Assembly (NCBI GenBank): GCA_973895155.1
Contig: OZ316891.1
Coordinates: 26,163,899 to 26,227,898, forward strand
Reading direction: 5' to 3'
DNA from: Marsupella aquatica
Taxonomy: Eukaryota; Plantae; Marchantiophyta
DNA length: 64,000 nucleotides
The translations under genes and the position numbers were made by a program. The notes beneath the pieces are model-generated. The model had not been told where the DNA came from. It was given only the letters and a program-made list of their open reading frames with translations, and did not search any database. This document shows, in pieces, positions 3,294-44,433 of the stretch; within the stretch, counting starts at the first letter, position 1; each line of letters opens with the position of its first letter.

Positions 3294-4405
3294 AGTGGTC
3301 GTACGGACGTGGTTGTACAGACCCTGGACTTTCCAACTTTCTTGTGAGGGGACACTCATGGGCTTGTTGGAAAGAGCTTGCGGAGCTGATTCCAACAAGG
3401 GGCGGCGCTCCTCAAACGGAGCCAGGATGAGCAGGTTATGGCCCGACGAAGTTGTGTTTACGGGATATAAAAACGGCCATAACTTGGTCGTCCGATGTCC
3501 GTTTTGAGAGCGGTTGAGTGATTCGTGATCAGGAGGAGGAGGGCTATCCAGGGGTGAACTCAGAAGTGCGAGTGGAAGGGCACCTAGTTTCAGCCATTGT
3601 GGGGTTCCTTGCAATTTCACGGTTCACGGAGTAATGTTGGGGCGCCGTCGAAGGCACCATCGGCCCCATTGTTAGTTTAGGGTTTAGAGTTTTAGAAGCA
3701 TGTGTGTGCCGCATGCTTTTAGTTTAGGGGTTTCTTAGTGAAGGGTTTAGCGGCGCCGCTAGGGTAAGCCGCCATCGTTGTGGCCCCATGAGGGGTACTT
3801 TGGTGTGTTTTTTGGTATTTAGGGGGAGAGCCCCATAATAGTGAGGGGGGGACTCAGTCTAGTGTTTGCTTAGGGAAGATAGCTCATAGCCAGAAGGGGG
3901 AATCAAGCCAGAGTAGTGAGGTAGATGTGTAGCACTTGCCCCAGTGAGGCAGTAGTTGGGCAGACGGCAGGAGGCCGGGTTGTCCTTGCAATGTGTTACG
4001 ACATTTTGCCAAAAGATATGGATTTGGTTTGATTCCTCAAGTTTTGGTGTGGTGTTACCTTTTCTGGTTCACGATTGTGTTCTTTCCCCAAGAAACGTCT
4101 AAGGAATCCTTGCACGGTTTGGTCAACCATGTGAGTAGGGAGGGGTGGTGACAACACTCCACCGACGACCAGTAGGAATGTGTGTGTGTGGCGTAGTCCA
4201 TGGGACTTGATCAAAAGCAAAGCGGCTAGTCGGTAGACTTGATCAAAAATTACATTTTCGGGAGCAGAAATAAACATACTCATCCTACATGCAATAGAAT
4301 CCTAATAGCGTCCCTCCACGTTCCAATCATACGATAACAAACGATTTTAGTAGGAGTAAATACGTATTTGTCGTGTAAATCGTTTGATAAGCAGGTGACA
4401 AAGAC

Positions 4406-7400
4406 TTGGATGCATTTCACAATGGGCTGGACAACGAAGAGGATACGACTGCAGATGCAAGTGTGCCCCCTGTCGAAGAGCCTCTTGATGAGTTTGAGAT
4501 AGGGCAGGAAACCCCTGGGCATGATGGGATGTTTGGCTCTCCCCTGCAAATACAGGAAGGCAGGAAGTCTTTGTACCCCGGTAGCAAATGTTCTAAACTG
4601 GGATTTGTCATCATGTTTATGAACATTTGCGGCAACCACAATGTCCTCAACGTTTGGTTTCTGAGTTGTTGGCATTCTTGCGAACAACTGTGCTACCAGA
4701 TGGTAATATTTTGCCCAAGAACATGTACGAGGCAAAAAGATGCATATCTAATCTTGGATTGAACTATGATTCCATCCATGCCTGTCCCGATGGGCATGTT
4801 CTTTTCAAAAAGGAGTATGCAGAATCGTTGTCATGCCCTAAGTGTGGGAAGCACAGGTATCGGAACTCAAGAAAGTCTATGGTCCCCGCCAAGGTGCTTC
4901 ATCATTTCCCACTCATTCCCAAACTTCAGCAGATGTTCAGAAGCCGTGCAATCTCGGAGATGATGACTTGGGCAATTGACAAGAAAAGTGATGATGGGCT
5001 ACAACGACATGCTGCAGATTCAAGGCAGTGGAAACTCATAGATGAGATGTATCCCGAATTTGCTGCTGAGCCGAGGAATGTCAGACTTGGGCTGTCATTG
5101 GATGGGGTAAACCCATTTGGAGACAAGAACAACAAATTTTTGTGTTGGCCTGTAACTATTTTGAATTATAACCTTCCTACTTGGATGACTACCAAGTGAT
5201 TTTTTGTTCTGATGGTCCTATTGATACTAGGGCCAGACAGTGTTGTATCTGCCAACATAGATGTGTTTCTGGCTCCCCTAGTGGAGGAATTGAGAAAGAT
5301 TTGGGAGGAAGGAGTCCTCACATATGATGTCCTACAGAGGCTTGGGAGGTTAAACCCATTCATCCTTAGAGCCATCGTCATTCTGACTATAGCTGACTAC
5401 CCAGCCCATGGGATGATATCAGGCCAAACAACAAAAGGATATTGTGCTTGTACTATCTGTGGGCGCAATGTCACCAGTGAGTACTCCAGAGCCTTGCAAA
5501 AAATGATATACATGGGCCATCATCATTTTTTGAAGGCAGATCACCCTTACAAAGAAAGACAGGCACTGATTGCACACTTTGGCAATGAGATTGAGCAACG
5601 TGGACCCCCGGCACGAGTGACCAAAGAGGAGATCAGGCAGTGGGGAGCACTGAGGGATGACTATATCAAACGAGGGGGCAGGGAAGATGGAGTGAGTGAT
5701 CCAATAAAGCGATGTGGTGTAAAAAGACTAAGCATATTGGACTTGGAGCTCCAGTATTGGAGGGTAAGCCTCTTGGAGTTGATGCTAATTGGGATACTTG
5801 TTTTGATTCAGAGCATGTGCATTCATTTTGAAGAGAGAGACTAAACTTGAGGCATTTGCTGACGCTTTTGCATTGCAACGGTGCAGGAGTTTGAGCCAAG
5901 CAAACATAACATTGATGTTATGCACATTGAGAAGAATATTTGTGAGAGTCTACTCAGATTCTTGTGTGGAGAGAAAGACACTAGTTCAGTGAGATTGGAT
6001 TTGAACAAAGGGGAATGAAACCCCATCTTTGGTTGAGGCCACATGCCCACAGAGCTGATGTGCTCTTGAAGTACCAAGCGCCCTATGTTCTGACAGACAC
6101 AGAGTGGCAACTATTTGTGCAGAGGTTGAGTTCTTTGAAGGTTCCTTCAAACTATGGCAGTGCTTTCAAGAAGCATATCATGACTAGAAAGCTTGGTAGT
6201 ATGAAAAGCCATGACTACCATATGTTGATGCAACAGGTGTTGCCTTTATGTCTGAGGGGCTTGTTGCAGAAGCCTGTTCGTAATGTGATCATGCGACTCA
6301 GTGATGTGTTTTGTCGTATTTGTGTGAAGGTTTGGGATGAAACACACTTCCCACAACTGACAGAAGATGTCGCTCAGGTGCTGTGTGACCTGGAGATTTA
6401 TTTTCCTCCCGCATTTTTTGATGTCATGACCCACCTACTTGTCCATGTTGTGGAATAGCTACACCAATTTGGGCCTGTGAGTGCTCGTTGGTTGTACCCT
6501 TTGGAACGGTACATGAAGCTACTCAAAGGTCACGTGAGAACATATTACAAACCTGAAGCAAGCCTGGCTAAAGGTTACATCAAGGATGAGACTCTGGGAT
6601 TTCTGACCGAATACATAGCACAATATGAGCATGTGAAGACCAGGGTGTGGAATTCTGATGAGGAGGAAGGGGTGATAGGTGAAGTACTGGAAGGAGCTGC
6701 AACCACAAAGAACCTGACCACATCTATGAGAGACTTGGCACATGACTTTGTATTGCACAACACTGTGGTGATGGAACCCTGGATACAGTGAGTGCATCCA
6801 TGGGGAATCACTCGTTGGATTATTAGAACGGGGTGCGAACAAATGAAGGTTCTTTTTAATCTTGTTGGTGTAATAATTATAATCAAAAATTTGTACTAAA
6901 GGCATTTAAAAATCCAATTTTGGTAAAAATATTAGTTTTTATATTCAGCAAGGTATTTAAAAATTTGTCAAAGCCATATAATCAAGGGTACAAGGGTATT
7001 TTTAATTGAATTTATTTTTTAATATATTTTTTCAAATTTCATTGGTTTGTTCTCATGTGTTTTAGGGGTTTTACTCCAAGTGATTCCCCAGGGGAGTGCA
7101 TACATGTGCTATAATCCAGTTCATGAGCTTAAATGTTGTGTGCGTGTGATTTTCTCCTTCAGCCTGTTCATATTTACCCAAGCTAATGCTGTGTGGTTGT
7201 TTGTTCAGGGAGTATGAGTCATTGAAGGCGGCCCATCCCACTGCAGGAACAACTTTTCCAGGTTTCATGGAGTGGATTAGAGTGGCAATTAGAGAGCATC
7301 ACGAGACCCACCCAGACATGGATGCAGACATTTACCTACTGTCTAATGCCCCTAGCCTAAAAGTGAAAACTTACAAACGGATGAGAGCATATGGGAATCA

Positions 7401-7974
7401 CTTTCGAGTGAAGGATGGTGACAGTGCCTACAGGGTGACAAATGACTGTGGGCTCATCACTGTATTTGAGCAACATAGCCACAATCACGACAGGGCCTGG
7501 ATGGAGATGGGATATGTGGGAGAATTAGTTGACATATGGGCTCTGGACTATGGGGCGGTGTCCAGTCCTGTGATTCTTATGAAAGGTTCATGGGTGCGGC
7601 AGGATTGGCTTGGTAACAGGGCTACCATGAAGAGAGACAACGACGGTTTCTTGCTGGCCAATTTTAGAGGGAAATTGCCCCAATGGTCTGAGCCATTTGT
7701 GTTTCCTAGTCAGGTGGAGCAAGCTTTCTTCCTGGATGTGGAAGACTCCCTAGGTTGGTGTGTAGTGTGTCATAAACAGGCCAGGCAACGTCGGATGGAA
7801 GGATCAAACCTTGAGTTTCATTTACACTCTCATAGTGCCTTTGATCGTCGGCGTTCAGACCAAGTGCCTGTAGTTCATGATAGCGGGGACTTCATTCCTG
7901 TGACAAGGGTACATGCATTTGCTGAAGGAGGCGAATTCAGAGATGCAGATGCCAACAGTGTGCCTGTGCCATGA
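4406..7974 (+). pseudogene. Element A Tnp2/TnpD transposase (Transposase_21, DUF4218-like and DUF4216-like regions), disrupted
   Basis: Motifs IHACPDGH, RNVRLGLSLDGVNPF, WPVTILNYNLP, ADYPAHGMISG, IDVMHIEKN, MKSHDYH, FFDVMTHLLVH, WLYPLERY, EPFVFPSQVEQ. Introns at ~5764-5887 and ~6789-7208. Frameshifts near 4645 and 6010; stops at 5197 (TGA) and 6456 (TAG). Confidence 0.92.
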
Positions 7975-8093
7975 GTAATGTGAATTGTTTGCATGGACAT
8001 TAGTGAGGGGAAGGATGTGTAATAAAGTAATTCTGAAGCAACACAGATGTATGGATGGATGCCTGGTGATTGTGGTTGCATTGTGTTATACAG

Positions 8094-11000
8094 GGTGACC
8101 ATAGATGACATGTTTTTGTGGTCCAGTAGGATGGAACAGAGTGACACAGAGATGTGTGAGTATGAAAGGAAAGCTATGGAACAACGAGCATACGTGAAAG
8201 CCAAAATTGCAGAACTGGATCTGGAAAAGGATGTGGCTGAATTGTAAGGACGATTCTCAACTACACCACTCCGCTGAGTTTGTGTGACATGAATAGTTCA
8301 ATGTGGCACTAAAATTGTGACTGTATGCTCATATTGGAACGTCACAGAGCCACAGCATTTTCAAAGAAACAAAAGGAGTACGCAAGAAGGGTGACCAACA
8401 CTATCTCTGGGCCTGTGCGTCGGAGTGACAGGTTGAGCAAGAAGGTCGTACCTACAATGGCAGAATGTGAAGATGACATTGATGCTGCACAGGTGGGTAC
8501 AGACACTAGACAAGAAGATGCAGATGATGAGTACTTTCCAGAGGAAATGGATGAGGATGGGGGTTATGAAGATGAATACATTGCAGAGCAACCCCAAAAG
8601 AAACATGTAAGTAGTTTTCCCAACAAGGTTTTGAGTTAAAAACTCTTGTTTAGAGGTTTCATATGTTCAGTACTACACATATGTACCTTGCTTAGTTCCT
8701 GACATTGTAGTTGGTGATGTGATGCAGCGTCCTGCCAGTTTTGTTTTGCCTTCAAAGCCTGTGCATGCACCATACCAGTAGGGGGGCTGACCTCTGATCA
8801 AGGTTGGCGAGGTGGTAGTAGTGGTAGATCCCAAGCTGGTGCCCAATACTATGGCAGGGGGCAAGCTCCCGGTTATGCCCATGGTAGAGGCAGAGCAGGT
8901 CCAAACCCACAGTCTCATGGGTATGGACATCCACCTCAACCATGGGGATGTGAGTATATATCTATATGCCAGTTCTTTGTGAAGGCATGGCACTCCTGAA
9001 TTTCAGACTGCATATCAATTTTTGACATTGTTTGGGATGTATTGGATTTAGACAACATGAAATTCTGTCCACCTGCCATTGCATGCAGATTCTGCCCAAC
9101 CTGATTGGGCAAATGCTGGTAATGATCAGTTCCAATGTCCACAAGGACAGACATGGGTTGAACCAGGTTGGGAGGATGGTGGTGGGTCGTGGAATGAACA
9201 AGGTTGGGAAGGTGGTGAAGGTAATTGGCAGGGATATCAAAATACAGTACCTACAAACGCTGGAAGAGGGGCAGGTAATGTCTGATATTGTCAGCAATGG
9301 AAGAACTCATTATACCTGGAGTCCATTCACGTGGGGGGGATTCTACACATGTATAATGAACGAAAATGTATGTGTGCAGGTTGGACAGTGGAACCATCAA
9401 CTCAAGTATTCACTAATGCCCCTATGCAGATGCAGCACAGAAGGGGGCCAGGTATGTCGGTGAATGTTCACTTGTTTTCCTACAGTTTGTACTTAGTTTT
9501 CAGTATATATGTTTGCACACACATACCTAGAAAGTGACACCATCCGGCCCCTGTACTAGGCTGGACAGGTGGTCCAGGGTCGCAACAATTCCAAAGTGCA
9601 GTCCCTGCACAGGCATCTACAGACAGAGCTACAGGTATGTATGTTTGAAGAATTTTTCTTGAAGTGAAGCATTGAATGTTGTCGTCATCCATTCTGCTGT
9701 ATGTAGTTCTCAAGCATGAATGGCATTGTATTTTCCCAAGTGGCTTCAGAACCCCAGGTAAGGTGAATGAAGGGGTGGCCAATACAATGCCCAATACTAC
9801 CGAGAGCAGTGCACGAGGGGAGGTGACAAGAAAGGGAACGTAAAGTTGAATGAGAGACAATGGGTGGATGCTGAGTGTCCTCGCAAGAACCGATGGCATG
9901 CTGATTTGAAAGCTGAAGTATTGTGTTGGTTAGATGTGAGTGTTATTAATTTTAAAAAACAGCATCCAAAAGATTGGAAGACTGTATGTGAAAATGTTGC
10001 TGCCAAATGGAATTATGTGGGCAGTGATGATGGCGTGGACATAGGTTGCCTAGAGAGTACAGCAGGTAAAATCATCAAGCAAGAGAGGTGGAGAATGCAT
10101 AAGGCTTGGAAGGAAGGTGGGAAGAAGCCAGATATGCCTCCACCAGCCAGTTGTGATGATAAAGTGTGGGCAAGGTTAGTAGCTTATTTTGTAACAGATG
10201 CTTCAAAAAAGAAGAGTTCACAGATGACCGAGGCCAGGTTGAGTGTTCAGAACCCTAATCTGACAGGAAGGACCGGCACTGCACCGACAGCAAAACGTTT
10301 GGTAAGAATCAATGGCCTAGGTATGTAATTTATGCTACACTATGTATTGTTCACTTTGTTTTTTAGTGTACGTGCCCTGAATAATAATGATAACTTGTGT
10401 TTGCCATGCATGTGCAGAAAACCCAATTGGGGCAAAGCCCTTCAAAAGAAGAGTTGAGGGCTGAAATTGTGAACACCCGGGCTCAAGAGGGTGCATCTGA
10501 ATCCTCCAAGCATGTAAGTTATATGAGTTCTGATTGGTAATTGAATGACTTGCGTTAAATTTCAGGTGTACACTGTATATAACATTGATTGTGCATATAT
10601 TGCCCAACATTTCATATGGAGTGATCGAACCTATACCCCTGTGTCATGTAGGGAGGTGGATCTTCACTTACAGAGATAAGTGGTCGTTTGAAGGCTGTCG
10701 AAACATGTCTTCCAGAGATCAATGAACGTTTGAATTCATTGACTGACTTGTTCCATGTGAACTTCAAGACATTAATGGAAGCTGTTGTGTCGGTGAGAGA
10801 TAAAATTGATTCCAATTTTGCAGGAGTTCCACCATCACCACTTGAGGTGGCAAAGTCGATGCACTCTTCTGGCATGCCAACGACATGTAGGCTTGAAGGT
10901 AAGGCCTTTACAACTGTGTGGGATATGATTAGTAAATGTATAGTTTGAATTGACATAGTTTGTTGAATGTGTTATTTTTAGTAACATATATTGTGGTTGT

Positions 11001-11526
11001 TGTGTCCATAGAGAATAAGATAGGTGCTGCAGAGAAGAAGTATGAGAACCTGGCAAATACTCGCTGTAATTTAGAGGCAACAAAGTTGCAGTCTGTACAA
11101 GCAACTTGTTTGACAGAGGGCAGTCAACCATGTTTGGATGAGGATGACATTGGCAAGGGAGTGGATGATATCAATGTTGGGGCAAATGAGGATATCAGTA
11201 AGCATGACAATGATATCATTGAGCCAGATTCATGCTATGTAGATCTTGACTCCATTGCAGAGATAAATGATTTGCAGAATGTATCATTCTCAATGACAGG
11301 TGTGCCTCTTGTTGAGATAAATCCAACCAAAGAGTTAGTTGGTATGACACTCCCAGGTGCTGAACCTGCTGCTGTGACAGTCCTAATAGAGGAACCTACT
11401 GAGCCTAGCTTCACTACTGTGAAGAGAGGAAGCATGCGCACACGAAGCAAGTCTGCTGGTGGGAGCAGAGCCACGTCAAAGGTTTCATACAAACCTCCAA
11501 GAACGGTGCTGGCAGAAAGATCTAAG
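8094..11526 (+). pseudogene. Element A second gene (TnpA/PTTA-like), many short exons, cut by element B
   Basis: Run of GT-AG bounded exons. The exon around 9846-10301 reads RWRMHKAWK...PPPASCDDKVWARLVAYF...KKSSQMTEAR...TGRTG, which resembles the Transposase_24/PTTA pattern. The reading frame ...AERSK runs into the element B TIR. Exon boundaries are approximate. Confidence 0.7.
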
Positions 11527-12022
11527 CACTACAACATATTTGACACTTTTGCGAAGGTATTTTTGTCGACGCTCTTGTATTTCCGATGGGCGGCGCTTTG
11601 CATATTTTGCGAATCAACCCGCATCGCAATTTGCGATTCTATCCCTATCGCAAATATAATAGCTGAAGCGCATTATATCGCTAATAAATTGCGAAGTAAG
11701 TGGTTTTGCAATTTTTACCGAAATGCGTCGAATGGAAAGGCACCTTCCGAAGACGGAAAAATCGCTCGCCGACTCCGAAACTAACTCATGTAAATATTTG
11801 CGAAGAATATTGGATTGAAAATGTTTTGCGATAGTAGTTGGTTGACAAGTTTAAGAATGTTGGAGGATGGAAGATTTGCGAAACGCTGAAAATATGAAAT
11901 TTGTGATTGATTTTGCATCACAAGTTTGCGAAGAGTGTAGTATGGAAATATTGAGAAACGAGAAGCTTCATATAAATTGCGAGTCCGGTGAGAGTTTGTG
12001 AGCTTCACAAATTGTTCGCAAA
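11527..12022. repeat. Element B left TIR and subterminal TTGCGAA/TTCGCAA motif array
   Basis: Many TTGCGA(A)/(T)TCGCAA copies in both orientations directly inside CACTACAACA. Confidence 0.88.
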
Positions 12023-12487
12023 CTAAAAATTAAGGTTATTGTGAGGTGAGACAATGAAGAGGGTGGATGGTCCAATATATGGATGGGGCAGGAGGGAAGA
12101 GGAAGGGAGGATGGAGGGAGGTACAATGAAGGATGGAAAAGGGAGGGAGTACAATGGAAGAGGAAGGAGGGAGGAGAAAGAGGAAGGGAGGAGGAGGGAC
12201 AGACGTACCACGGAGGAGGGAAACACGAGGGTGAGAATGAAAATTATGGAATAAGTAGGAAATAAAGTTATATTGAGCAACAGAGGTTAGATAGAAAGTT
12301 GCATGTAAAATTCACAAGTGATCACAATAAAACAATACAATACATATGTCATGAGTATGACTCATTCAAAAGTGAATGGCAAATAAAAATATAGACAATC
12401 CTTTTTTTTATATCACCAAACATGAATAAATCAAATATAACATGAACAAATGTCTAGGCTGGACCCAAGTGCATATAAATATGTCCC

Positions 12488-15400
12488 TCACACTTGGTCC
12501 TCATCGGCCTCAAGGTCATCTAGGTCTGATACAATAACATCTGGCTTCTCAGAAACAATGGAACGAGAACGTGGCACATAGGTGATGACAATTGACCACT
12601 CGGTGTCTAAGGGGTATGGAATGTAGAAACATTGCTCCAAGTGTGATGGGAAAGCAAATGGTTCTGACGTTTGCCAATGAGATGCTTGAACACTAGTGGC
12701 ACTTGTCTTCAACCGTGTAAACCCACTCTCATCTTGAAGTACAGTGCAATTTTGACCAACAAGGTTCACTTTGAACCACTTGCACTTGAAGACATATTCC
12801 TCAAACTTTGAATGGTTGTCATATGATACCACCAAGATCTCCTCTATCTTCCCATAGTGTGGCACAACATCTCTAACAATGTTCCTGTCATGGCGGCTGC
12901 TTCTGGAGTCTTGAGAAAATTCCCCTTGAACTCCACAATCAAAAGTACGACCCCTCTTCTCATCAAGGGAAGAAACCCTAAAATTAACAAAACCCACAAA
13001 TTTTTATTACACTATAAAAGATACCATTAATGTAATAATCATCAAAATATGACACCCATCCCTAAATAGCCAAAACCCACATGGCCTATGGCATAAATAT
13101 AGAAGCCAACATTACAGTTATGGATGTCATTAATGATAATAGAAAGTTTTTAAACAATAGAAATAACTAATCAAAATAAGGTCTACATGAATTAATAGAG
13201 GAAGAAAGGTTAGGTACTAGTGGACCTGAAGTGTCTCCCTTGTGTCCACATAGCCGTCTTGGATGTCACCACTCTCAAAGGGCCATGAACAATGGTCCGA
13301 ACGTCATCTGTGATGGTAGGAAAGTGGGACACATCTCCTCCTTGTGTCACCATGTCATCCAACTCAAGCAACTTTGGCTTCATATACTCATGCATCTTAG
13401 GAAAAATTCTTGCTCTTTGACTTGTTCTCTTGGCATTCTCATAAAACTCTCTCCATTTCTCCATGATATTACTATTACTCAACATAAATGTTGTCAACTG
13501 TGACCACTCTGTTGATGTCAACATACGTGTTTTTGTGGCACCTGTTAAACGGTCCTCCTCCTCTTCTCTTTCCTCCATCCAAGTACGTGGACAAGTAGGA
13601 TCAATGGTGGCCAAGATGTTACTACAATAAAACATACTCTCTGCTGCCAAGTATCCTGTAGCTATGCTTCCCTCCACCCGTGCACGGTTACGTACATAAG
13701 CCTTCAACACCGCCATGTAACGCTCAAGCCAATACATCCATCTACAATGCACTGGACCTGCAATGGCAACCTCCCGCACAAGATGCACAAGTAAATGAAC
13801 CTGACAATCAAAGAAGGAAGGAGGAAGGGCTTTCTCCAACTTGCATACCACCTCAGCTGCCAATACCTCCATCCCAGGGATCTCTTCTACATATATCTCC
13901 TTTGAGCATATCCATCTCAACAAACGACCCAATGACCAGATGGCATCTTGCACTTCTTCACTCCCTATACCTATAATTGCCACTGGCAATATATGCTGCA
14001 ATAGGCGATGATAGTCATGTGTCTTCAGATATCGTGGCCACTTGTGATTGTCCTCCATCCCAAAAGCTTTTCGAAGGTTGGCACCATAGCCTGTAGGAAA
14101 CCGCATCTCTCCTATACGGTTCCGAAATTCACGTCTTTGGCCAACACTCAACACCCAAGGAGCAGAAGGACGATTCTCCACACCTGTGATAGGATCAATT
14201 GTCACCCAAACATCTGGATGCATTTCCATCTCCTCGCATGCCTCCCTAAAATTAGTGTCCTTCTCCCCATAAAAATGCTTTATCAAAGCCTTCCCCACAT
14301 TTCCCTCTATGTGCATGGGGTCTAAAAGATGGCGGATCTTCAACTCAGACCAATAGGGCAAAGTGGCTAGTATACTCCACCTGGTCAAACCTGTCCTATC
14401 AAAGGTGAAGGAATCATTTGGGTCTGCCACCCTATTAGCTAGTGACTTCCAATGTGCAAAACTTGTTGCATCAGGAATTTCACGCTCATCACCAAATGGC
14501 ATGTCAAAGGAGGAGAATAGAAGTGGGTCAAACCTCATCTCATGCCCCATGGGAAGAAACTTTGTTTGCCCAATATAAACAATCTTTCTAATCCATGAAC
14601 GATATGTGGCCATGTCCTCTAAGCTTGGGCCACAAGTAGAGCAAGCTTTGTACCCCTGAGTTTGCAATCCAGAGACAAAACCAAACCCTGCTTACATAGA
14701 AGAAATCAAACCATGCAAACTTTATGTTAGGGTTGTCACATGAGAAACATCAATAGGAACTACACATTATTGAAGGGTTGCAAATGGCATGGAAGTCATC
14801 TTACCAGGATAGTCATGCATTGTCCAACAAATGATCCCTCTCAATTGAAAGACACGTGGAAAACCTCCTGTAATTTTCCTGCCATCATATGCCCACACTC
14901 CATTCCATAATTTTTGAAGTTCTCCAACCAATAGTGCCAAGTAAGTGTCAAAGTTCTTCACCTTTTTTGGACCTGGGATAATCAAAGACAATAAAAGGAA
15001 CCCCTTCTTCATGGATAGCCATGGTGGGAGGTTATAATTCATGACAACCACAGGCCAAACTGATGTAGGTTGCCCCTTTCCTCCAAGTGAATGAGGGCTA
15101 ATTCCATCAGATGCCAATCCTAGCCTCACATGGCGAGGATCATGTGCAAAGTCTGGCCATGTTGCCTCAATATGTTTGTGAGCAGGGGAGTCAACTGGCA
15201 ACCGCATGACACCAGACTCTGATCGATGAGTCTTATGCCATACCATCAACTCTGCCAAGTCAGAACACCGATACATGTGCAACAACCGAGGAATGATGGG
15301 AAACCAACGAACAGCCTTCCTTGGCACCTTCTTTGTTAGCATGTTGGGGTCATAGCGAGGCTCATCACATGTTGTACATTGTGTCATGTTTGCATTGGCC

Positions 15401-17306
15401 CCATGAAATAACATGCAATCATTCACACATGCATGAACAATATGATATTCCATGCCAATAGATGAGAGAACACTCTTTGCCTCCTTCCAAGTTGCTGGCA
15501 ACACATTCTCAGTGGGCAACATAAGGTCATGGCAAAGTGCAAACATATCAGATAACAAGGCATTGCTTGCCTTGTGTTTGGCCTGTAGGTTCATCAACCC
15601 CAAGATGGCTGAAAGACGACTCAAACGAGCACCCTCATAGATAGGTGTTCGGGCATGTTCCTCTGCTTCTTCCCATTGGCGTTGTCCCTCAGGGGTATGC
15701 CTTGGGCGTGGATCATTGGGGGGCACCTGCCCTTCATTGGGAAGGTCATCACCAAGGTTGTCGGCACCAAACCAATCAACCATAAAGTCATCCATGGCTC
15801 TATCCTGGTCATCAGTTACTTGTTCATCCGTCCGAGGTACCTCTTCATCAGGGTTACTGCTTCCACTAGCACTTGATGAGGAGTGTGACTCTGATCCATG
15901 TCCTTCTTCTGGCATACCCATTTCTCGATATGTTGCTCTCAATCTCCGTGGTAACATATTTGGAGAGGGTCGCACATTCTAAAAACAAAGCAAACAATTG
16001 AAAGTTATATTGCAAAGAGAACACACACAAAAATGGGCTAGGGGTGTGCAAAAATGAAATAATATTGGTTGTGGTGCAAATACAAAATGTGGCCAAAGGC
16101 CATATGTAGTGCCCTTTGATATGCAACATACCACCTATGACCCTTAACTTAACCCTAATCCCACTCATAGTGAGTAAATAACTCATCCCCTGAGTTAATG
16201 GTCCTTGTTGCTACAACTAGGCAATGGTCATGATGATATGTCTGGCCATAAGGTGCTGGCGGAGGACCCTCAATGAAAACCCACTCACAATTTTGCCTAC
16301 GCTTAGGGCGAGTCCCCACGGTACTGTTTATGAAACCAGCAATATTCCCAGTCCGTATGGGGTCCCCATCTATGACACGCTGCTCACTATACCTTCTAGT
16401 GTTTCCATCAAAGTATCCATGTCCAATGCATAAGTCTTCCACTCAGGGTGTTGTGCAAGGATCATGTTCCAATGTCTTCTCTTGTAGATGGGTCCACCAT
16501 AAGGAAACAAAGTAGGCCCCTCTCGGCCGCGTCCACCTCTACCACTCTCGGCGTCCACAATGATGTCCTCACAGGCAAAAACTCCATAGCCATGTCTATC
16601 CCCAAGTGTGGAAGGTTTGATAACCCAACGTCTACCCCAAACCTCTACCTCCACACCGTAGGAAAGCTGTTGTGGCAAACCAAGAGTCTCAGGATCCCAG
16701 TCCTTGATGATAGGGACACATCTGCCAGTGAACTCACAATCACCCCACCGACCCGTAACCACTGCCTTGTACAAATCAGTATCCCCTCGGGCCCGCCTCT
16801 TGGAACGCTTTCTCCCTCTTGGGACAATAGCCTCAACCCCAACTTCCCTAGGACTGGTCGGCCTTGCCGCTAGACCCAAGGCTTTTGAGAATGCATTGCC
16901 TATAGCATCTAGAACACCTTGTGATGGGACATAGGGTGCTTGTGCCGCAGGTCTAGGCCTATTGGATACCTATTCCACCGAAACCAAAACAAACAAAAGT
17001 AGGTGTGAAATTGCAAACCTTCAACCATTGAGTAATGGGAATAGGGTAGGAAAACTAAGGCATAACACTTACCATATGAGATGAAGAAGCCCCTGCCGTA
17101 TGACGTCCACAACGCCCATATCTCTCAATATGTTGGGCACATATGTAAGATTTTTGGGAAACCTGACCCACACATCTGGAACATTCACAAAGTTGACGGG
17201 GTGGACCGCGAGGAGGAGGTGCGGTCGTGTGATGTTGAGGTGGAGGTGGTGTATCTTCATCAGAGGAGGACGAGTCTGTGGTGGAGATTTCAGAAGATGA
17301 AGACAT
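12488..17306 (-). CDS. Element B Tnp2/TnpD transposase, 4 exons, predicted 1119 aa, no disabling lesion seen
   Basis: Predicted exons 17306-17073 (CECSRC...HIERYG domain; donor GTAAGT), 15978-14805, 14687-13226 and 12977-12488 total 3360 nt, with GT-AG introns and consistent phases. Junction peptides: SHM/NVRP, DYPG/FGFVSG, HFR/VSSLD. Motifs VHACVNDC, RHVRLGLASDG, LDPMHIEGN, LKTHDYH, WMYWLERY, EPFAFPSH. Confidence 0.9.
16155..16969 (-). CDS. SET-domain (lysine methyltransferase-like) alternative exon in intron 1 of the element B transposase; one 1-nt frameshift at ~16410-16412
   Basis: All four SET motifs occur in order: IKPSTLGDRHGYGVFACEDI, LFPYGG, IDGDPIRTGNIAGFINS...N, VVATRTINSGDELFTHY. 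The acceptor AATAG|GTATCC at 16969 is phase 0 and in frame with ORF 16370-16879. Adding one T to ACTTTGAT joins ORFs 16370-16879 and 16155-16442 (ALDMDT-FDGNTRRY). Confidence 0.85.
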
Positions 17307-17311
17307 ATCCC

Positions 17312-18605
17312 CTGTAACAAGATATAATTAAAATGGGCATGTTATGACCAAAACATACCACAAAATGATATAAATCAAAGTTCCCAAATAATGATGACAA
17401 GAAACCCAAACCAAAATGACCATAGCAATAAAAAAGGTACCTTTATGAGACCCGGGCTCAGCAGTGCCAATAGCTCTTGTGGCTCTAAGATAATTAATGA
17501 ACCCAATCTGAAAGTATGAGGGAAAAGCTGCAACCATTCCATGTATATGTAAGCACAATAATCTGGACCAGACAAGAACAAAAAACCCTACATACATGTC
17601 CCCTTTATACATAGTGGCAACAGTAAGTGTTAAGTACATGAAAGGAACACTTTAGCCGATCATGCAATGTTTACCTTTCAGATGCCCGGGCTCTCACAAT
17701 GCATATGCATTAGTATCAAATCATCAAAAAGTGCCGCACCCTGCAAGCTATCATATATTCCCCTCCTTTGTTAGCAAAACCCATGCCAATCCCCTTTTGA
17801 TTCATAAACCCAATGAACCTCTCTTAAACCCAAAAGGCTGCAATATAAATCTCATGAAACCTTGCTTTGTCTTATCCAAACCTTCAACCCCAAACCGCAT
17901 CCTACCTATTAAACCTAAATCTGACTTACACACAAACCCAAACCTTTCTTCAACCCTAGAGACCTTTCTATTTAAAAACCCCAAACCCTAAAACCCTAAA
18001 CCCAAACCTTACTTATTTCTTGTAAACCAAATCCCACACCTTTATTATTTCTTCTAAACTAATGTAAACCCAAACCTTAGCCTAAACCAACACCATACAT
18101 AACCCATTAACCTGAAATCTGCCTAACCCTTCAAACCCGCCTTCAACTATTATCTAACACCCAAAACATGGCCAAAAAGCATTCCAAATATGAGTATAGA
18201 GGGGTCCACTTCACCTTTGAAAAAAACCCTTTCAAATGAAACCAACATTCCCCCAGGACGAGTTGCCAATGTCTTGCGAAGCCGCTTCCTTCGCAAATAC
18301 CATCACAAATTAGAATTGAAGTTTGCGAAGCTACTGCTTTCGCAAGACCTTCAGAAAAACAGAGCCCGAGAGCATTTTTGCGAGAGAGCGAAGGTGTTGC
18401 GAAGCCTTTCACGTCGCAATGGTTTCGCAAAATTGAGAAACTATATGCGAAACAAGAAGAATCGCAACTTGCGAAACGGGTTGCTTCGCAAGTCTTTCCC
18501 GCTTGTACTTTTGCACTCGGCCGCGGCGTACTCAGCGGCATTTGACAAATTTCAAGCGTAGGGAGGGAGAAGGGAGCTCGCGCGCGCTCGGGGGGTGGCT
18601 TGGCT
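17312..18605. promoter_or_regulatory. Intergenic (bidirectional promoter / 5' UTR) region of element B with AAACCCTA-like tracts and a TTCGCAA array
   Basis: Lies between two divergent ATGs (17306 minus, 18606 plus). AAACCC(TA) repeats at ~17800-18140; TTGCGAA/TTCGCAA cluster at ~18270-18495; splice acceptor at 17312, 5 nt before the transposase ATG. Confidence 0.6.
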
Positions 18606-20570
18606 ATGGATTCCAGTGGAGCAAATGGAGGTGATAGGGCAGGGGTGAGTGAGAGTGGCAATGGGTATGAAGGCAATGGGGAGCAGGAGAGGAATCGATG
18701 GACCAATTTGATGGCTGAGCACCTCAATGCAGCACAGTTGAGCCACTTAGATTTGACTACACCAGCAGGGATTGCTTCTTTGAGTGCAATCCTTGGGCAA
18801 GCCTTGCAAACGGGAGTAGATGCAGGGAACATTGCAAGGGAGGAGGAGCAAAGGAGTGCAGCTCAACAGAAGGCAAGAGAGAAGAAGCGTAAGAAGGAGG
18901 AGAGGGCCAAGGCAGGAGTAGTCTCACCTGTTGCCCTAGAAAAGAAGAGGAGGAGAGAGGAACGAGATGAGATAAGAGCACAACGGGAGGAGCAGCGAAA
19001 GAAGGAGGAAGAGAGGAAGAAGCTGCCTATGATTGCCTTGATCGAAGGCATTCCTACTGAACTGGCCTACACCGGGGCAAAGAGCACTATCAGGCTTATG
19101 GTGCGCTCCAATTTTGCACGAGGAGTTGAGTGGGGGAAACTCAGCAAGGCAGACCAGAAGAAAGTAATGAGTCAAATCAAAGATTCATTTCGAAATGGAG
19201 CAGAGATTGATGAACAGTGGCTTGCAGATAGAATTTCCAATTCAATGTCTCAAGCACGGTACCATGATAGGAAGAAGGTAAGGGCCTACCTGGCAAACTT
19301 GGAGGAGTACAGAAACGTGAGGAGGCCACTACAATTCACTGAGGACGTGTGGAATGCCTTTTACAAAGTGGAGGTGCAGATGAGAGCTGCCAGGAACCTT
19401 CTCTTCTGGAAGGAGATGGAAGCCAAGGCACAGAAGGCCGGGAAGTCCGACCGAGAGCTCAAGGCAATGGCTGAGAAAGTGTCTCACATGCAGCACATTG
19501 TGGATGAAGTGGGTGCACCACCCCAAAAATTCATCCTTGCAGCTGAGCGAGTCAGCAAACGGCCCAAGACCACGCACAAGATGGGCCAAGGTGGACTTCC
19601 CGGCCTCAAAGCACACTTTGTGAGTGGGCCCTCTCCTCTCCTCCCCTGCTTCTGTTTCCTTGCTTTCAATTGCTATCCAAACCTGCAATGCCCCCCCTGC
19701 ATACCTCTTGTTTCTTTCTTACGGCCTGCCTTGTACTTTAGGTCACCCTGACACATTGCGTGCCTTAGAGATTTCTCGGAATTTTTTAAAAACAGAGTTT
19801 GCGAAGCTTTTGCGATGCGGGTTGCTTCGCAAATGTTTCGCAAACTCTATCATGGCATTTTTTAAAGTTGTAAATGCGAAGCTATTGCGAAATAACTCGC
19901 TTCGCAAACTACTTCGCAAACAGCCAATTTATTTGAATTTGCGAAGTGGGGAGTTTCGCAAGTGTGTATTATGTTTTAAAAAAACCGCTAAGGGTTATTG
20001 AGCCCAGTTTTGTGTTAGGGGGCACCCTAGTAGCACCTCCATGCATTTTTCTTGGGTTTATAGCATATTAACCTCGATCTATTTTGGTTTTGGAATGTTT
20101 GGTTGTGGTAGTATAAGAGGTACCGCAGGAAGATAACAGCAAAAGAGATGGAGATAGGAGCTGCGCATGGAGCCAAACATCTCTTTGACTTGGTTGACGC
20201 AGAGTTGGCGACTGTAAGTGCATGTATCCCCTTCAGTTTTTCCCACCCAATCCACTTATCTTTTCATTCCGTAAACCTAAACCAATTTGGCGTTGTGCTG
20301 TGCAAACAGGATAATGAGGATGCCAGTGATACCAGCAGCACCGATGAGAACAATGAGGGGACCACGACAAAGGGGCCCAAGGTAGGAGGGAGTAGTGGAT
20401 CTGGACCAGTAGGAGGAGTTTCCCAGCAGGAGGGGGAGGAAGAGGACGAGGACGAGGAGGAACCAGATGTGGAGGAGCAGCCAGCACCACCTCCTGTGCC
20501 ACGTCCGGATCGTCGCAAGAGGGACAAGGGGAAGAGGCCGGCGACAAGGAGTAGGAGGACCCCATTCTAG
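18606..20570 (+). CDS. Element B TnpA/PTTA-like protein, 3 exons, apparently intact
   Basis: Predicted exons 18606-19619 (donor GTGAGT), 20112-20213 (donor GTAAGT) and 20310-20570, all phase 0. Charged coiled coil, then W-containing helices (EWGKLSKADQKKV, PLQFTEDVWNAF) and THKMGQGG, as in CACTA second ORFs. Acidic/basic tail. Confidence 0.78.
19797..19962. repeat. Intronic TTGCGAA/TTCGCAA motif array in the element B TnpA-like gene
   Basis: About ten copies of the terminal motif packed into intron 1. Confidence 0.85.
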
Positions 20571-20822
20571 AGCTTGGTGGTGTAGTGCCTATGGGATGCC
20601 CATTTACTTAGTGTAGTATATAGTTTTGATATGGGTAGTCTTATAGGGACCTAGCTTGTCATATGACACCCATCTAGGGTTTAGGGTTTAGGAAACCCTA
20701 ATTTTTGTGTACCTATCAATTTTCTATAAAGCAATTTTGATTCAGACCTCATTCTCCGTGTTGGACGACAAGACCCCAACCATAATTCAAAACTCTAAAT
20801 CTAAACCCTAGCCTCAAGACAT

Positions 20823-21253
20823 CTTGCGAAACCTATGCGAACAACCCAATTCGCATATTTACCATATTGAAGGTATCGCAAACATTATGCAAACCACATA
20901 CGTTCACAAAAATGCGAAGCCATGTTCATGGCATAACTACCATTAACTTAATATCGCAAACCGATTACCAAACGTCTGGGATTGCAAATATTTAACTGCT
21001 TGATTATTATCGCAAGCCTCTCGCGACGCCCACGGAGTCGCTTAAATGTGAGTCCTTTGCGATTCTATTAGTGTCGCAAGTTGCGAAGGCGTTGCGAAGG
21101 TCTTGCGAAAGACCGGATGCGAACCTTTGGGCTTCGTAGTTTGCGATTCTATTGCGATGCGCGATACTTCGCAAAGGCGAGTTTTGTTTTTTGATTTCCT
21201 TTGTTGTTTGCGATGCTTTCAAGTTCGCAAAAGGTGTGGGTAGTGTTGTAGTG
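20823..21253. repeat. Element B right subterminal TTGCGAA/TTCGCAA array and TIR
   Basis: Dense motif copies ending in TGTTGTAGTG. Confidence 0.88.
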
Positions 21254-21538
21254 AAGGTGGAAGTAGGGAAAGCACCTAATGCTGAGGGACAAAGTGGCTT
21301 GTTAGCTGTTGGTGAGAGTGGAACACGAGTAGGATTTGGCAGAGTGCAGGTTGGTTCCACATCGTTCCATGGCAAGAGGATTCCCCCAGGTTATTCAGTA
21401 GTGTTAGTCACATTACTAGTGAAACCTAAAGCTGTCCTTCCCATTCCAAACACAAATGATGATCCTCCTCAAAAGACACTTGGAGATGCTACAGGTTCTT
21501 TGGTATTATGGCCAAGCAAGTTCATAGAGGATCCATAA
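21254..21538 (+). pseudogene. C-terminal end of the element A TnpA-like gene (Tnp1/En/Spm C-terminal-like domain)
   Basis: VGFGRVQVGSTSFHGKRIPPGYSVVLV...AVLPIP...TLGDATGSLVLWP matches the typical C-terminal domain of CACTA second ORFs. In frame with the exon interrupted at 11526. Confidence 0.8.
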
Positions 21539-22512: not shown

Positions 22513-23103
22513 GACGCTTCTCAAAGCATCGGTGTTTTTTCGGTAAAACTAATAAACAGTGATCTTAATCTAATTTTAATTTCTAAACTAAAAGTCGGAA
22601 TGAGTTGAAACGTTTCTAGGGTACTCTACTACATATAATTTCTATGCTGACAAAGTTTTAGACTTTTCTGAGATCTCTAAGTGCCTCAAATAAATCGGTA
22701 AAAGTGGCGCGGTGTTATAAAAGTGCGAAAACTGAAAATTTTTCTAAGTGTCGGGAACATAGTGGACGCTTCAGAAAGCGGCGGAGTCAGGGGTGGACGC
22801 TTTTCAAAGCGTCCAAAAATACAAAGGACTTTTGTGGACGCTTTAGAAAGCGTCAGCTGAATTTCGAGGTTTTGGTCACAGCGTCCATCTTCTGGTCTTC
22901 GGGCGGGACGCTTCAGTGGGCGTCGCAATGTCGATGTCGCCTTCGGGGTAGCAGATGCTTCTGTGGGCATCGCTCCTCATGTGGATTGCAGAGCATCGGA
23001 GTACAACTGGTTGGGTGGCGGACGCTTCAGAAAGCGTCGTGGTCTTGGGTGGACGCTTTTCAAAGCGTCCAAAAATACAAAGGACTTTTCTCAAAGCGTC
23101 GGC
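22513..23103. repeat. Element A subterminal palindromic repeats GGACGCTT(N)AAGCGTC
   Basis: Several copies, e.g. GGACGCTTTTCAAAGCGTCC at ~22795 and ~23051, the latter two within a longer duplicated segment. Confidence 0.82.
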
Positions 23104-24559: not shown

Positions 24560-25360
24560 GTAGTTGGGGACATCGATCATTTTGTTACGTCCAAAACCCT
24601 GGGCCCTCACTCCGTGTAAAAGAAGTGGATCCCCTGCAATTGGGCCCTCTTCTTGTTTACCCCTTGTTATTTCCATTTTACTAAAAAAGTTCTCTTATTA
24701 CCGGTAATAATTAGAATTATTAGAAGTTCAAAATGAATAAAAACTACCCTTCGAGCATTGCACATCCTCCACGTATTAGTTCAGACTGAGGGCCCAGGGG
24801 TCCAAAAGGGTTTTGGGACATTCAATATTGGTTTCTGCCGCAACTTTTGTTTTAGGACAGAGGTACATTGTTTGCAAGCTACAGTAGTGACTTTGCCAGG
24901 CACTTCAGCAAGTTATGTGAACTCCACACACACACACCAACCCTGCAGTCCCCGCTCTCACCCCACGCACACTAAGAGCGGGGACTTGTGTGTGAGCTGT
25001 GGCTGGTCCTGATTATTGACAACTCCGTGGCCACTTGAGCTAGACCCCAGCCCTAGGCCCTCAGCCTATGTAATGTGGAGAGAGCGTGCAAACAACTTAC
25101 GGAAGGGTATTTTAACTTCATTTTGAAGTTATTGTATTACTTTTAATGATACTTACAGTTAAATACAGGGAAACAATTAACAAGGGGTGAAAAGGGGAAG
25201 CTTACAATAGGGGTCTATTGACAGATATGTTTCATTAGTTTACACATAGTGTTGGCCGTGGGGAACAAGACCACTTTTGGTGCAACGTTTTTCAACAGTG
25301 CAACAAGTGAAGGGAAAGAGGGTCGACGTACTATGAACAAAGATGGCGATGTCTTCAAAG
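24560..25360. mobile_element. Degenerate foldback/MITE-like element with long imperfect inverted arms
   Basis: TTGCACATCCTCCAC...GACTGAGGGCCCAGGGG (~24758-24800) mirrors CCCTAGGCCCTCAGCC...GTGGAGAGAGCGTGCAA (~25050-25091). GACATCGATCATTTTGTT (~24569) mirrors AACAAAGATGGCGATGTC (~25336). Ends not resolved. Confidence 0.5.
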
Positions 25361-26455: not shown

Positions 26456-28789
26456 ACTCTAACTAGTCTAGGTTAATGCGGGGGTTAATGATTGAGGGTG
26501 CAATTTACTTCTATTCCCCACAATAGGATATTCTTGGGCCAGTAGTACCAAAATCAGCAGTTGATTTGACATGACTGTCAACCTATGTAGACTTCAGTTA
26601 GCTTATAATGATCTCTTGAATGTTTCTCCTCCATCACAATAAACCCAAAACCAACAGTTACTATTTTGGTACTATTGGTACTACTGCCAAAAACGATGGT
26701 ACATGAGCATGCACTTTGCGTTCAATGCAATTCCAATCGGAAACCATAGTCCATTTCAAAAACAATAGGAGGCACATTCCATAGTTCATGCATAGCAAAT
26801 TTCCATCCCATCTTCAACCAATCATATATAAGTGTTTGATTCATAGGACATTGGAAAGTGCTATCAATTATGTTTGCAACGAAAATACACTTCCATTTGG
26901 TATTGAATTGCTCACAAACATATCCAATTTAACGTGAATGGCAATGTGCAATCTATGCCGAATCACAACTTACAATTACAAATTGATCAAAACTAACAAC
27001 TCATGTTTATCTTTGTAAAGAGTCTCCAATTCATTGTGAATGGGACAACAATCAGACTGATCAGTCCATTTCCAGTCAACACAGAATGGAATTCTCATAG
27101 TTTGTGAATTGAAAATCTTTTCCAATTGTGGTTGGGTTGGAGCTTATGTTTTTCTGATAGTAGTGGAATGGCAATGTTCGATTTGCATTGGATCGGAAAG
27201 TAAACTCGCCAATGCGTTTTGAATGAAATTGGAAAGCTTCACATTGTCGGAAAGTGAGAATCGGACTAGGCCCCAAAATGTACTAGTGACTAGTGCACAG
27301 TGCAAAATCATCATCGGTGGAAAGCAAGATTGAGGGTACCAAAAATGTTCTCTATAGTCTCCACCAAAGTGCAGAAATTGGGGGTGTTACATGCAAGATT
27401 GAGGAGTACCAAAAAGGTTCTCTACAGTCTCCACCAATGTGCAATAAATAGGGGGTGTTACATGCACTCAAGTGTTGTGATCTTATTTTGGCATATCAAA
27501 GGCTATATTTGAATCCAGATCTTGGAAGTCTGTCCTATCTTTGAGGAAGTGTATCAAACTCTGCGGAAGTGCATCCAAGTTTGAGGAAGTGTGTCCAACC
27601 TTTGAAGAAGGGTGTCAACCTTTAATGTAATCCCTTTTCTCTGAATCTCCATTTTTAATGAAAAGTATGAGGGCTAATCCACAATCCTTTTTGCACCTTT
27701 TGGTACCCTTCATTTTTGCTTTCCACCCATCATTATAAGATATAGCTACTGTAGCCGATTTATGATTGACACTATTATTTGTACAATGTTGCTTAATGTA
27801 TTCATTCTCATCAAATTTTCAACACTTTACGATTCTCAAATCCCTAGAAAATTCATGCATTGCAATATACTTGGTCCTACAACATTATTTCACCTATCTC
27901 TAACTAGTAACCACTAGAGCACACCCAAATCGGGACTAAGAACTTTAAGTATCATGAATATTCTTCCACATTCGATATGATAGCAAAGTAACAGTAACTC
28001 TTGTCTCATCAAACAAAACTGTATAATTTTAACCATACAAATTGTCAATTTCAAATGCTCATGAGACCTAGGTAGGGTTTTCTTCTGGTCTTGTACCTTT
28101 TTCTTGGGGTTCTCACTACATAGTGGCCCCCACATCACCTGCAACATTTAACCACAACTTGCCCTATATAAGGGGAAGTGTCCAAGGCCTCCCCCTTTTT
28201 CCACATTTTAATCACTCTTCTCCTCTAGCATTCCAGTTTGCTCCACAATTTCAGGAAATAACTACGGGTAACCCGTAGCTTTTGAAGGGCAGTTGTGGTT
28301 TAAGCCCTGCACCCCCAAAAATTTAAGAATTTGTTTTATTTTAGAAACCCTATAAAGTTGGATTTTGATTAAAACGACACTAATGTTCTTACAAGACTCC
28401 AAATTGGACTTAAAGACACTAAAGTTTTTCCACAAAAATTTCTAAGTCTTCCCTATAAATCAATAAAACTACCGTATTTTTCATCACATGTGATGTACCA
28501 ATTCTGTGGAAGTGAAACTTTCAAGACCTTTTTTTTTAAACTTGCTAACTGTGCAAGGATTATGGAAATCTTGGGTCCTCACACTAAATTAAGTAAAATA
28601 AGTGAACTCCTTGTAATCCTAAGTGATGCCTTCCCTTTTACCCTTGTTATTACTATTGACTTGAAAAAGTTCACTTGTTATAATTAGCTCAAAATAAATG
28701 AAAATGGCATTCAAGCATCTTCACATCTTACGCATATTAACTAAAGGTGGGGGCCCATGGAACTAAGAGTATCAATGTGCTCATGCAAA

Positions 28790-30637: not shown

Positions 30638-31027
30638 TCATGTAGGGGCATCTCAAGCTTCTTTCTTTTTTGCCTCGAAACAACCAAAAGAATTCCATCT
30701 CAATCTTTTTGAATCTTTGGTTTTCCCTGTTTTCTTTGCTTTATTGGGTCTCCTACCTTTCATTGGGATCCTATTTTCCCAATTGGCACTTTTTGTTCTC
30801 CTAACTTTGAGATCCTATCTGCCCATTTGGCACTTTTGGTTCTTTTGCAAAACATAAGTGTGATGTGTACAGTATTACAAACCCATAGAACTGGGGTGCT
30901 AGAGCTACACTTAGGTCAGGAGGGTTGCTAGAGCTTTACCCCTAAACCTTGGTGTGCAGTGATCCAAGCACCATTCTGACTGTCCTTTCCTAGTCTATGA
31001 AATTTGGGAAACGAGGAAAAGTGTAAA

Positions 31028-44340: not shown

Positions 44341-44433
44341 AAATCTTGACCTAGGTTCAGTCATGAGTGAGGATGTACTTCTCAGAACTACTCTTCAGTG
44401 ACAAAGGGGGCATTGGGTCCAACTCCCATGGAA

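Follow-up and report, generated by a model that had tools for sequence, protein, structure and literature searches.

We analysed a 64,000-nucleotide stretch of Marsupella aquatica DNA (contig OZ316891.1, positions 26,163,899 to 26,227,898; hereafter the window) in which a CACTA (En/Spm) transposon carries, ahead of its transposase exons, an exon for a SET domain, the fold of protein lysine methyltransferases (Table 1). An earlier interpretation of the letters alone (the sequence-only reading) had described this SET domain as minimal and non-canonical and proposed that it might represent a distinct transposon-borne clade. The SET-bearing element has CACTA termini and a 3-bp target duplication at its ends, and Transposase_21, DUF4218 and DUF4216 were all found within it by Pfam, both as expected of a CACTA element. 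The same holds for its TCGCAA motifs, which are clustered at both ends and at two internal sites; the window contains 60 such motifs compared to 18 expected, and 47 of the 60 lie within the element. Twelve inverted TCGCAA pairs have an 11-nt spacer, suggesting a dimeric binder. The divergent accessory open reading frame (ORF) at 18606-19751 gave no significant match in Pfam or PDB searches, and we take it, only by eye and from a motif, to be TnpA-like. The whole element sits inside an open frame of a second, outer CACTA element and disrupts it: the flanks at 11293-11526 and 21257-21538 share one frame, and the Transposase_21 match is present in both elements. We conclude that the SET exon belongs to a genuine SET family that is carried by transposons and kept by selection, with an uncommon shared-exon layout and a C-terminus cut short; a function for it is proposed below.

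Table 1. Features of the SET-bearing element, in window coordinates
Feature	Position	Strand	Remarks
CACTA (En/Spm) element	11527..21253	.	9727 bp; 10-bp terminal inverted repeats CACTACAACA; 3-bp target duplication AAG
Left subterminal TCGCAA cluster	11549..12021	.	12 motifs
Transposase last exon	12488..13003	-	open frame; PF13952 E 2.7e-8; ends approximate
Transposase exon 3	13210..14691	-	open frame; PF13960 E 2.3e-34, PF02992 E 2.7e-6; ends approximate
Transposase (TnpD-like) exon 2	14767..15978	-	open frame; PF02992 E 6.1e-39; lower end approximate
SET exon	16155..16969	-	linker, conserved N-flanking module, SET domain ending YEWD-stop; two frames in window copy
Motif IV, ELFTHY	16167..16184	-	terminal Tyr three residues ahead of stop
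Motif III, FINS	16323..16334	-	Asn kept, His replaced by Ser across family
Frameshift site	16410..16412	-	three A (plus strand) vs. four A in other copies
Intron 1, predicted	16970..17072	-	103 nt, GT-AG; phase 0 in 12/12 loci
Exon 1, 78 codons	17073..17306	-	Ser/acidic start; C-x-C-x2-C-x12-H zinc-finger-like motif; donor ATG|GTAAGT, phase 0
Internal TCGCAA cluster between two divergent genes	18274..18491	.	11 motifs; four TTGCGA-N11-TCGCAA pairs
Divergent accessory ORF	18606..19751	+	53-60% identity in 9 related loci
Internal and right subterminal TCGCAA clusters	19799..21230	.	24 motifs

The SET motifs of the window copy are split by a frameshift

The GxG, YxG, N-x and EL...Y motifs named in the sequence-only reading are all present on the minus strand, as GYG (16583-16591), YGG (16493-16501), FINS and ELFTHY, respectively. 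The details given for the C-terminal half were also correct: Ser stands in for His, Thr lies two residues ahead of the terminal Tyr, and ELFTHY is followed by EWD and a stop codon at 16155-16157, with no Cys-rich post-SET. The Pfam SET match to this half (26 bits vs. a curated cut-off of 22.4, E 1.3e-5) indicates more than a chance resemblance. The motifs do lie within the stretch named earlier, 16155..16640, but they are not in one frame. Motifs I and II fall in an ORF at 16370-16969 and motifs III and IV in an ORF at 16155-16442, with one base missing between them, and the copy as written stops at 16370-16372 without the Asn and the terminal Tyr.

We compared the window with 40 related metagenome loci, mostly from one young Sphagnum-type family, and with contigs, of unknown kind, from eight public runs. 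The frame was continuous in all 29 loci that span the site, although several related loci carry stops elsewhere. In run X1, contigs with the fourth A made up a depth of 1622.8 out of 1660.4 (contig depths do not measure copy number). The fourth A was also found in contigs of X2, X3, X6, X4 and X7, and none was listed for X12 and X13, where the site is barely covered. An intron was ruled out as the cause of the frame break, as relatives carry exactly the missing codon at this position. The SET family is thus intact, whereas the window copy, as it stands in the assembly, lacks one base and is broken. The loss may be a genuine mutation, or the assembly may have slipped in the short run of A. Substitutions set the nearest X1 contigs apart from the window at about 0.3-0.8%, which fits an aged copy.

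A first exon probably shared by the SET and transposase products

Exon 1 encodes a zinc-finger-like motif that we predict to be of the transposase-associated type and common to the SET and transposase products. It lies upstream of SET in 14 of 14 loci, and its donor is GT in 14 of 14 related loci. Phase 0 is common to the exon 1 donor and to both acceptors, that of SET (16969) and that of the transposase (15978), and the related loci preserve it at the SET acceptor (12 of 12). CACTA transposase follows the SET exon in all 23 loci with enough flank, and in 22 of 23 loci the similarity of the transposase begins exactly at an AG; the residues ahead of the first Met are conserved, and the DNA further upstream has diverged. 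In the window, transposase exon 2 starts at a phase-0 acceptor seven codons ahead of the first Met. We found no strong phase-0 donor inside the SET exon that is common to the window, L001 and L008. The three conserved phase-0 splice sites make it quite likely that exon 1 is joined by alternative 3' splicing either to SET or to transposase. A single transcription unit would then give two proteins that both begin with the zinc finger, one continuing into SET (349 residues if intact) and the other into transposase. The sequence-only reading had missed this shared-exon layout, along with the zinc-finger exon and the frameshift.

Gene models of Sphagnum, Calypogeia and Riccia do join the zinc-finger exon to SET, and those of Sphagnum and Calypogeia are 343-351 residues long. 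Of the 110 family profile matches described below, six have gene models that take in CACTA transposase sequence, and the zinc-finger motif, whole or only its end, is visible in five or six. Exon 1 is 33% identical over 36 residues to the PF13963-like exon of the outer element, and the distant relative P0208 matches PF13963 weakly (E 0.031). The contigs of the eight runs held no clean exon 1-SET or exon 1-transposase joint; the X1 joint at 16938-17067 has unknown letters between its two sides.

A bryophyte SET family retained by selection

Word-based searches returned 40 and 30 homologs, the named ones all from Sphagnum or Calypogeia, and the closest homolog to the window C-half was from Calypogeia (93%). 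When a family profile was run against 1.84 billion representatives, 110 matches (clusters at 50% identity) were obtained, none of them a host gene. Of ten distant members looked up, two are from Riccia and one is from Calypogeia. Relatives thus occur in Sphagnum, Calypogeia and Riccia, at the same position in elements of mosses and liverworts. Together with the constant order of SET and transposase, this multi-member bryophyte family supports the proposal of a distinct transposon-borne clade. Scans that see only close relatives confirmed 0 of 26 pattern matches in prokaryote genomes and 0 of 27 in viral contigs.

Pfam SET scored above its cut-off in five of the seven homologs scanned and just below it in one more; truncated P0008 gave no match. 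SET was the only domain that Pfam found in the 343- and 351-residue homolog models, which lack a reader domain, a PHD finger and PF01555. The plant SUVH, ASHH, ATX and E(z) classes have a Cys-rich pre-SET, AWS, CXC or post-SET region plus reader domains. None of these class-specific domains was present in the 343- and 351-residue models, which stop three residues past the Tyr. Motif III was readable in 71 of the 110 profile matches, 61 of which have N-S and none the canonical NH. These results, together with the lack of a favoured structural match (see below), support the earlier view that this SET is not a recent copy of a plant SUVH, ATX, ASHH or E(z) gene.

We compared nonsynonymous to synonymous divergence (dN/dS) by Nei-Gojobori counting on local alignments. 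Between the window and other loci, dN/dS was 0.13-0.22 for the SET core (11 loci), 0.10-0.16 for the transposase (7 loci) and 0.09-0.28 for exon 1 (6 loci). L001 compared with Sphagnum-type copies gave 0.30-0.48 over the whole SET exon. Among themselves, the Sphagnum-type copies gave 0.24-1.38 (28 pairs) at a synonymous divergence (dS) of 0.04-0.09, as expected of decay after insertion. Since the between-lineage values resemble those of the transposase, SET is kept by selection on the element, at a similar strength.

Selection bears on whether the SET exon is simply a functionless fragment of a host gene, carried passively as in many CACTA captures. The frameshift in the window copy, the stops at several loci and the dN/dS near 1 among young copies could be taken in this way, but post-insertion decay is normal for any transposon gene. 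The passive-cargo explanation is largely refuted by the between-lineage dN/dS, as judged from these alignments; the shared position in moss and liverwort elements, the 110 clusters and the lack of a host gene among the matches also speak against it, and we regard it as very improbable.

The dS between the window (12488-17306) and Sphagnum-type elements (L008-L029) was 0.63-0.76 for the SET core and 1.03-1.19 for the transposase (six loci, long alignments). For a liverwort host such values would be low and would point to horizontal transfer, and the lower dS of SET may reflect either cassette exchange or extra constraint. TCGCAA is also frequent in the Sphagnum-type elements L003, L005, L029, L039 and L040, with 17-29 motifs per locus and 0-6 pairs at 11-nt spacing. 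In L011, L012, L025, L029 and L030, transposase exon 3 is longer by ~150 bases at the point that matches residue 200 in the window, probably through an intron or insert without counterpart in the window's element.

A distant member from Calypogeia fissa, P0237 (503 residues), has a long branch and a different N-terminus with weak DUF5763-type zinc motifs (E 0.092), and SET may have moved to other elements in this case. The family tree comprised 73 of the 80 rows of the alignment described below, with no outgroup. The ESM Atlas neighbours of the homolog P0009 include SET clusters from Basidiomycota (0.96) and Haptophyta (0.95), unverified leads that could be other transposon-borne SETs.

Active site and predicted fold

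For the active site we aligned 80 sequences, 16 close members and 64 representatives chosen for coverage. Of the Gly residues on the side of the methyl donor S-adenosylmethionine (SAM), G66 was conserved in 68 of 73 and G68 in 71 of 74. Position 90 is Tyr or Phe in 77/77, and Y95 and Y113 are kept in 76/77 and 72/80. In motif III, N148 was present in 70 of 78 members and was followed by Ser (S149) in 75, Asn in 2, Arg in 1 and His in none. The terminal Tyr, Y201, was present in 59 of the 66 members aligned there, although in the window copy it is out of frame. The sequence-only reading had made conservation of this Asn and Tyr across copies a check on its proposal, and both are well conserved. 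The residue two ahead of the terminal Tyr (n = 66) was most commonly Thr (17), Ala (14), Val (12) or Cys (8). An acidic/RG-rich insert between motifs I and II, DAESGRGGRGRE, had also been singled out; this loop varies, being shorter or altered in most homologs, and is not a family feature.

Structure prediction returned a SET fold. The AlphaFold model of P0009 had a mean predicted local distance difference test (pLDDT) of 93.3 and a predicted template modelling score of 0.88 with the 80-sequence alignment; a first fold with 29 close sequences had reached a pLDDT of 41. Approximately 45 residues ahead of motif I are conserved, and P0009 residues 11-50 were modelled at pLDDT 93-97. The claim that the domain has no pre-SET therefore stands as far as a Cys-rich pre-SET is concerned, but the N-flanking hairpin and helices seen in the model indicate a domain less minimal than was held.

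Structural matches to the P0009 model were all SETs and nearly tied, and Foldseek agreed. SET1 matched at Z 12.2 (root-mean-square deviation 2.5, 124 aligned residues), followed by fungal EZH2 (12.1, and 11.1 for a second EZH2 chain), SET8 (11.7), SET7/9 (11.7), LegAS4 (10.9) and ATXR5 (9.9), with PR domains and MLL5 at 9-11. Sequence identity was 16-23% for the SET1, EZH2, SET8 and SET7/9 matches and 16-24% for solved host SETs overall. Judged by the predicted fold, the family appears to have no nearest clade. The best PDB sequence match to the family profile was LegAS4 (E 2.5e-6); a 25-sequence profile and the window C-half gave no PDB match, and P0014 gave only five unrelated weak matches. 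An origin from ATXR5/6, which write H3K27me1 and carry a PHD finger, had been raised by a weak profile match to ATXR5 (E 0.056) and a motif. It received no further support from profile or structure: ATXR5 scored below SET1, EZH2 and SET8, and no PHD match was found.

LegAS4/RomA of Legionella (PDB 8swi, 5czy) is instructive for the altered residues, as it has a non-His residue after the Asn (N-F) and an aliphatic Ile two ahead of the Tyr. It is a bacterial protein with a cSET helix and ankyrin repeats that bind H3, and at only 24-29% identity no kinship is implied. LegAS4 is nevertheless an active H3K14 methyltransferase, according to the available text of a preprint that also describes its cSET switch (bioRxiv 10.64898/2026.05.29.728679). 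By analogy, the His-to-Ser and Thr substitutions would be compatible with activity and do not exclude it. The available part of a review likewise treats PRDM9, which the sequence-only reading had cited as lacking the His, as an active methyltransferase (PMC6943651).

Alternatively, the domain could be a catalytically dead SET that acts as a binder, whether a mark reader, a decoy or a scaffold, guiding insertion or blocking silencing. PR domains and MLL5, several of which are inactive SETs, are among the structural matches; the His is absent in 78 of 78 aligned members, and the tail past the terminal Tyr is short, with 3 residues in 17 of 59 members and ≤8 in 41 of 59. We think a dead binder unlikely, however, because the SAM-side Gly residues, the Asn and the channel Tyr are conserved together across members 24-81% identical to P0009, and LegAS4 is active without the His. 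Going by the conserved residues, the SET product is probably catalytically active. At the Phe/Tyr switch of SET domains, a small residue favours multiple methylation. We infer di- or tri-methylation for this family, because the residue two ahead of the terminal Tyr is small.

A candidate element-serving methyltransferase

We propose that the SET exon, when spliced to the transposase's own zinc-finger exon 1, would yield a roughly 349-residue SAM-dependent lysine methyltransferase. This enzyme would methylate histone tails at the element's own copies and keep these copies usable, with targeting either by the shared zinc finger or by the TnpA-like protein at TTGCGA-N11-TCGCAA clusters. As a whole, the chain from an active enzyme to usable copies remains tentative, and we put it somewhat below an even chance. 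Within it, a histone substrate is slightly favoured over any other, and an effect in favour of the element, with targeting by the zinc finger or by a TnpA-like protein at the clusters, is rated a little less likely than the chain as a whole.

SET7/9 has non-histone substrates, and its tie for best structural match fits an active SET with a non-histone target: the element's transposase or TnpA-like protein, so as to tune transposition, or else a silencing factor of the host. Through the shared zinc-finger exon, the SET product would sit beside the transposase, and the homolog models contain no reader domain by Pfam. The top structural matches are mostly histone enzymes, however, and in the descriptions available, transposon-borne SETs are interpreted, rather than shown, to be chromatin modifiers. 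We consider a non-histone target unlikely, to about the same degree as a dead binder.

The mark itself could also be repressive, of the H3K27 or H3K9 type, in which case the enzyme would restrain the element or silence rival elements or host genes. Chlorovirus vSET is a writer of marks of this type, the two EZH2 chains tie for best structure match, and ATXR5 is the weak sequence match noted above. CACTA elements in Chlorella carry H3K27me3, according to the available text of PMC11982613, which contains nothing on transposon-borne SETs. H3K4 and H4K20 enzymes score equally, however, and no viral SET comes nearer (best E about 1e-6, 20-22% identity), so that the likeness to vSET suggested earlier found no special support among viral structures. 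The plant transposon accessory regulators known from the available accounts activate their own copies. A repressive writer is accordingly a distinctly weak candidate, less probable than either a dead binder or a non-histone enzyme.

Several observations weigh against the proposed element-serving histone methyltransferase. The fold ties among H3K4, H3K27 and H4K20 enzymes and points to no substrate. The protein ends three residues past the terminal Tyr, and in other SETs the post-SET region lines the substrate groove, as stated in the available part of PMC6943651, so the domain may be incomplete alone without a C-terminal lid. By this comparison the missing lid argues against stand-alone activity and appears to be a real oddity of the family. 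The zinc finger of exon 1 has no Pfam match and no ESM Atlas match of its own. A protein-cluster look-up, in which 5 of the 10 queried proteins were present, gave no gene model with exon 1 on transposase; two named Sphagnum transposase models start at an internal Met, and the models P0076, P0215, P0243 and P0244 fuse a truncated SET to transposase. The 40 loci and the window amount to about three independent lineages (Sphagnum-type, L001 and window). Finally, TnpA(Spm1) activates by DNA demethylation while H3K9me stays, according to the available text of bioRxiv 10.64898/2026.08.24.746577, and by analogy Spm anti-silencing would need no SET.

A more elaborate version would accommodate the missing lid. 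Here a histone-mark writer is a splice alternative of the transposase, one zinc finger addresses both products, and a partner in trans (the transposase, the TnpA-like protein or a second subunit) provides the lid, such that the enzyme fires only at cognate copies; the cassette would also have moved between mosses and liverworts. We regard this combination as rather unlikely, though a little less so than a non-histone target.

Comparison with known systems

Transposon-borne SETs have already been published, and the variant added here is the shared-exon SET of a land-plant CACTA element. A close parallel is PAG2, an accessory gene of Plavaka elements in red algae, in which a PF00856 SET on a CACTA-superfamily element is likewise proposed to act on chromatin; as described in the available text (bioRxiv 10.1101/2025.02.11.637652), PAG2 is a separate gene in a three-gene cassette, and an N6-adenine methylase domain is fused to its SET. 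In contrast, the window SET is an exon within the transposase gene, joined to a zinc finger and with no methylase domain (no PF01555). SET genes are also reported in HarbingerS and oomycete MuDR elements (PMC12730594, available text), and SET-carrying Helitrons are cited in the available part of the Bostrychia preprint (bioRxiv 10.1101/2025.02.11.637652). These are likewise DNA transposons with a SET methyltransferase gene, but they belong to other superfamilies and hosts, and the available text describes their SETs as accessory genes and not as an alternative transposase exon. The literature searched, which left subscription papers and Repbase Reports largely outside, held no description of a SET exon in a land-plant CACTA element.

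Maize En/Spm and Arabidopsis Spm belong to the same superfamily, and their TnpA and TnpD products are split by alternative splicing (bioRxiv 10.64898/2026.08.24.746577, available text). According to the same text, Arabidopsis TnpA(Spm1) binds CCVTCGCAAA clusters, the core of which is shared by the TCGCAA clusters of the window, and activates its own copies. It does so as a helix-turn-helix protein without an enzyme domain, by recruiting DNA demethylases of the host; the main text, as available, mentions no SET. VANC of VANDAL elements is, as the SET product would be, an accessory transposon protein that alters the chromatin of its own family. It is Mutator-borne and non-enzymatic as described in the available accounts, with a shown effect, whereas for the window element we have a catalytic fold and an inferred effect.

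Two further proteins resemble the SET product in part. In SETMAR (Metnase), a SET is linked to a transposase gene by splicing; a mariner transposase was captured by this host gene, which has Cys-rich pre- and post-SET regions. Its SET (PDB 3bo5) matches the P0009 model at Z 8.2. Unlike SETMAR, the window SET is part of a mobile element present in multiple copies and ends ahead of the transposase exons. Chlorovirus vSET is a small SET without Cys-rich flanks that has a longer tail and trimethylates H3K27 as a homodimer. Compared to vSET, the window family, known here from sequence and a model, has an additional module on its N-terminal flank, and its tail is shorter still.

The plant anti-silencing proteins VANC and TnpA bind DNA, and TnpA borrows host enzymes, as far as the available accounts go. 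A CACTA family with its own lysine methyltransferase, selected like its transposase, would, if the proposal is true, represent a different anti-silencing strategy, in which a plant transposon rewrites its own histone state with its own enzyme. The 110 clusters of SETs without the His, and nearly without a C-terminal lid, provide a natural test of the minimal size of an active SET. The family also matters for annotation, as its many models labelled "SET domain-containing" in the genomes of Sphagnum and liverworts belong to transposons and would swell the tally of host chromatin enzymes. The copy in the window is of less importance, being broken.

Other features of the window

The outer CACTA element occupies window positions 1-11526 and 21254-about 23100. 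It has a PF13963-like exon at 103-546, an ORF for a 474-residue coiled-coil protein at 1869-3293 and transposase exons at 4723-7974. The order of zinc-finger exon, extra ORF and transposase is the same as in the SET-bearing element, and the outer element may thus hold a different alternative exon. It has its own repeats, with a GGACGCTT core, at 22754-23089.

An intronless ORF of 989 residues on the minus strand (34039-37008) encodes AP2 and B3 domains and has a weak C-terminal match to AUX/IAA (PB1-like, E 0.022). We take it to be a RAV-type factor with a PB1-like tail; AP2-B3 proteins with such a tail are an architecture of algae and bryophytes. Lastly, a short tandem array (38-80 nt spacing) and inverted-repeat pairs ~350-1100 nt apart were found at 31007-31366, 27307-27736, 24713-25141 and 44431-45557, and the inverted-repeat pairs are possibly small non-autonomous elements.

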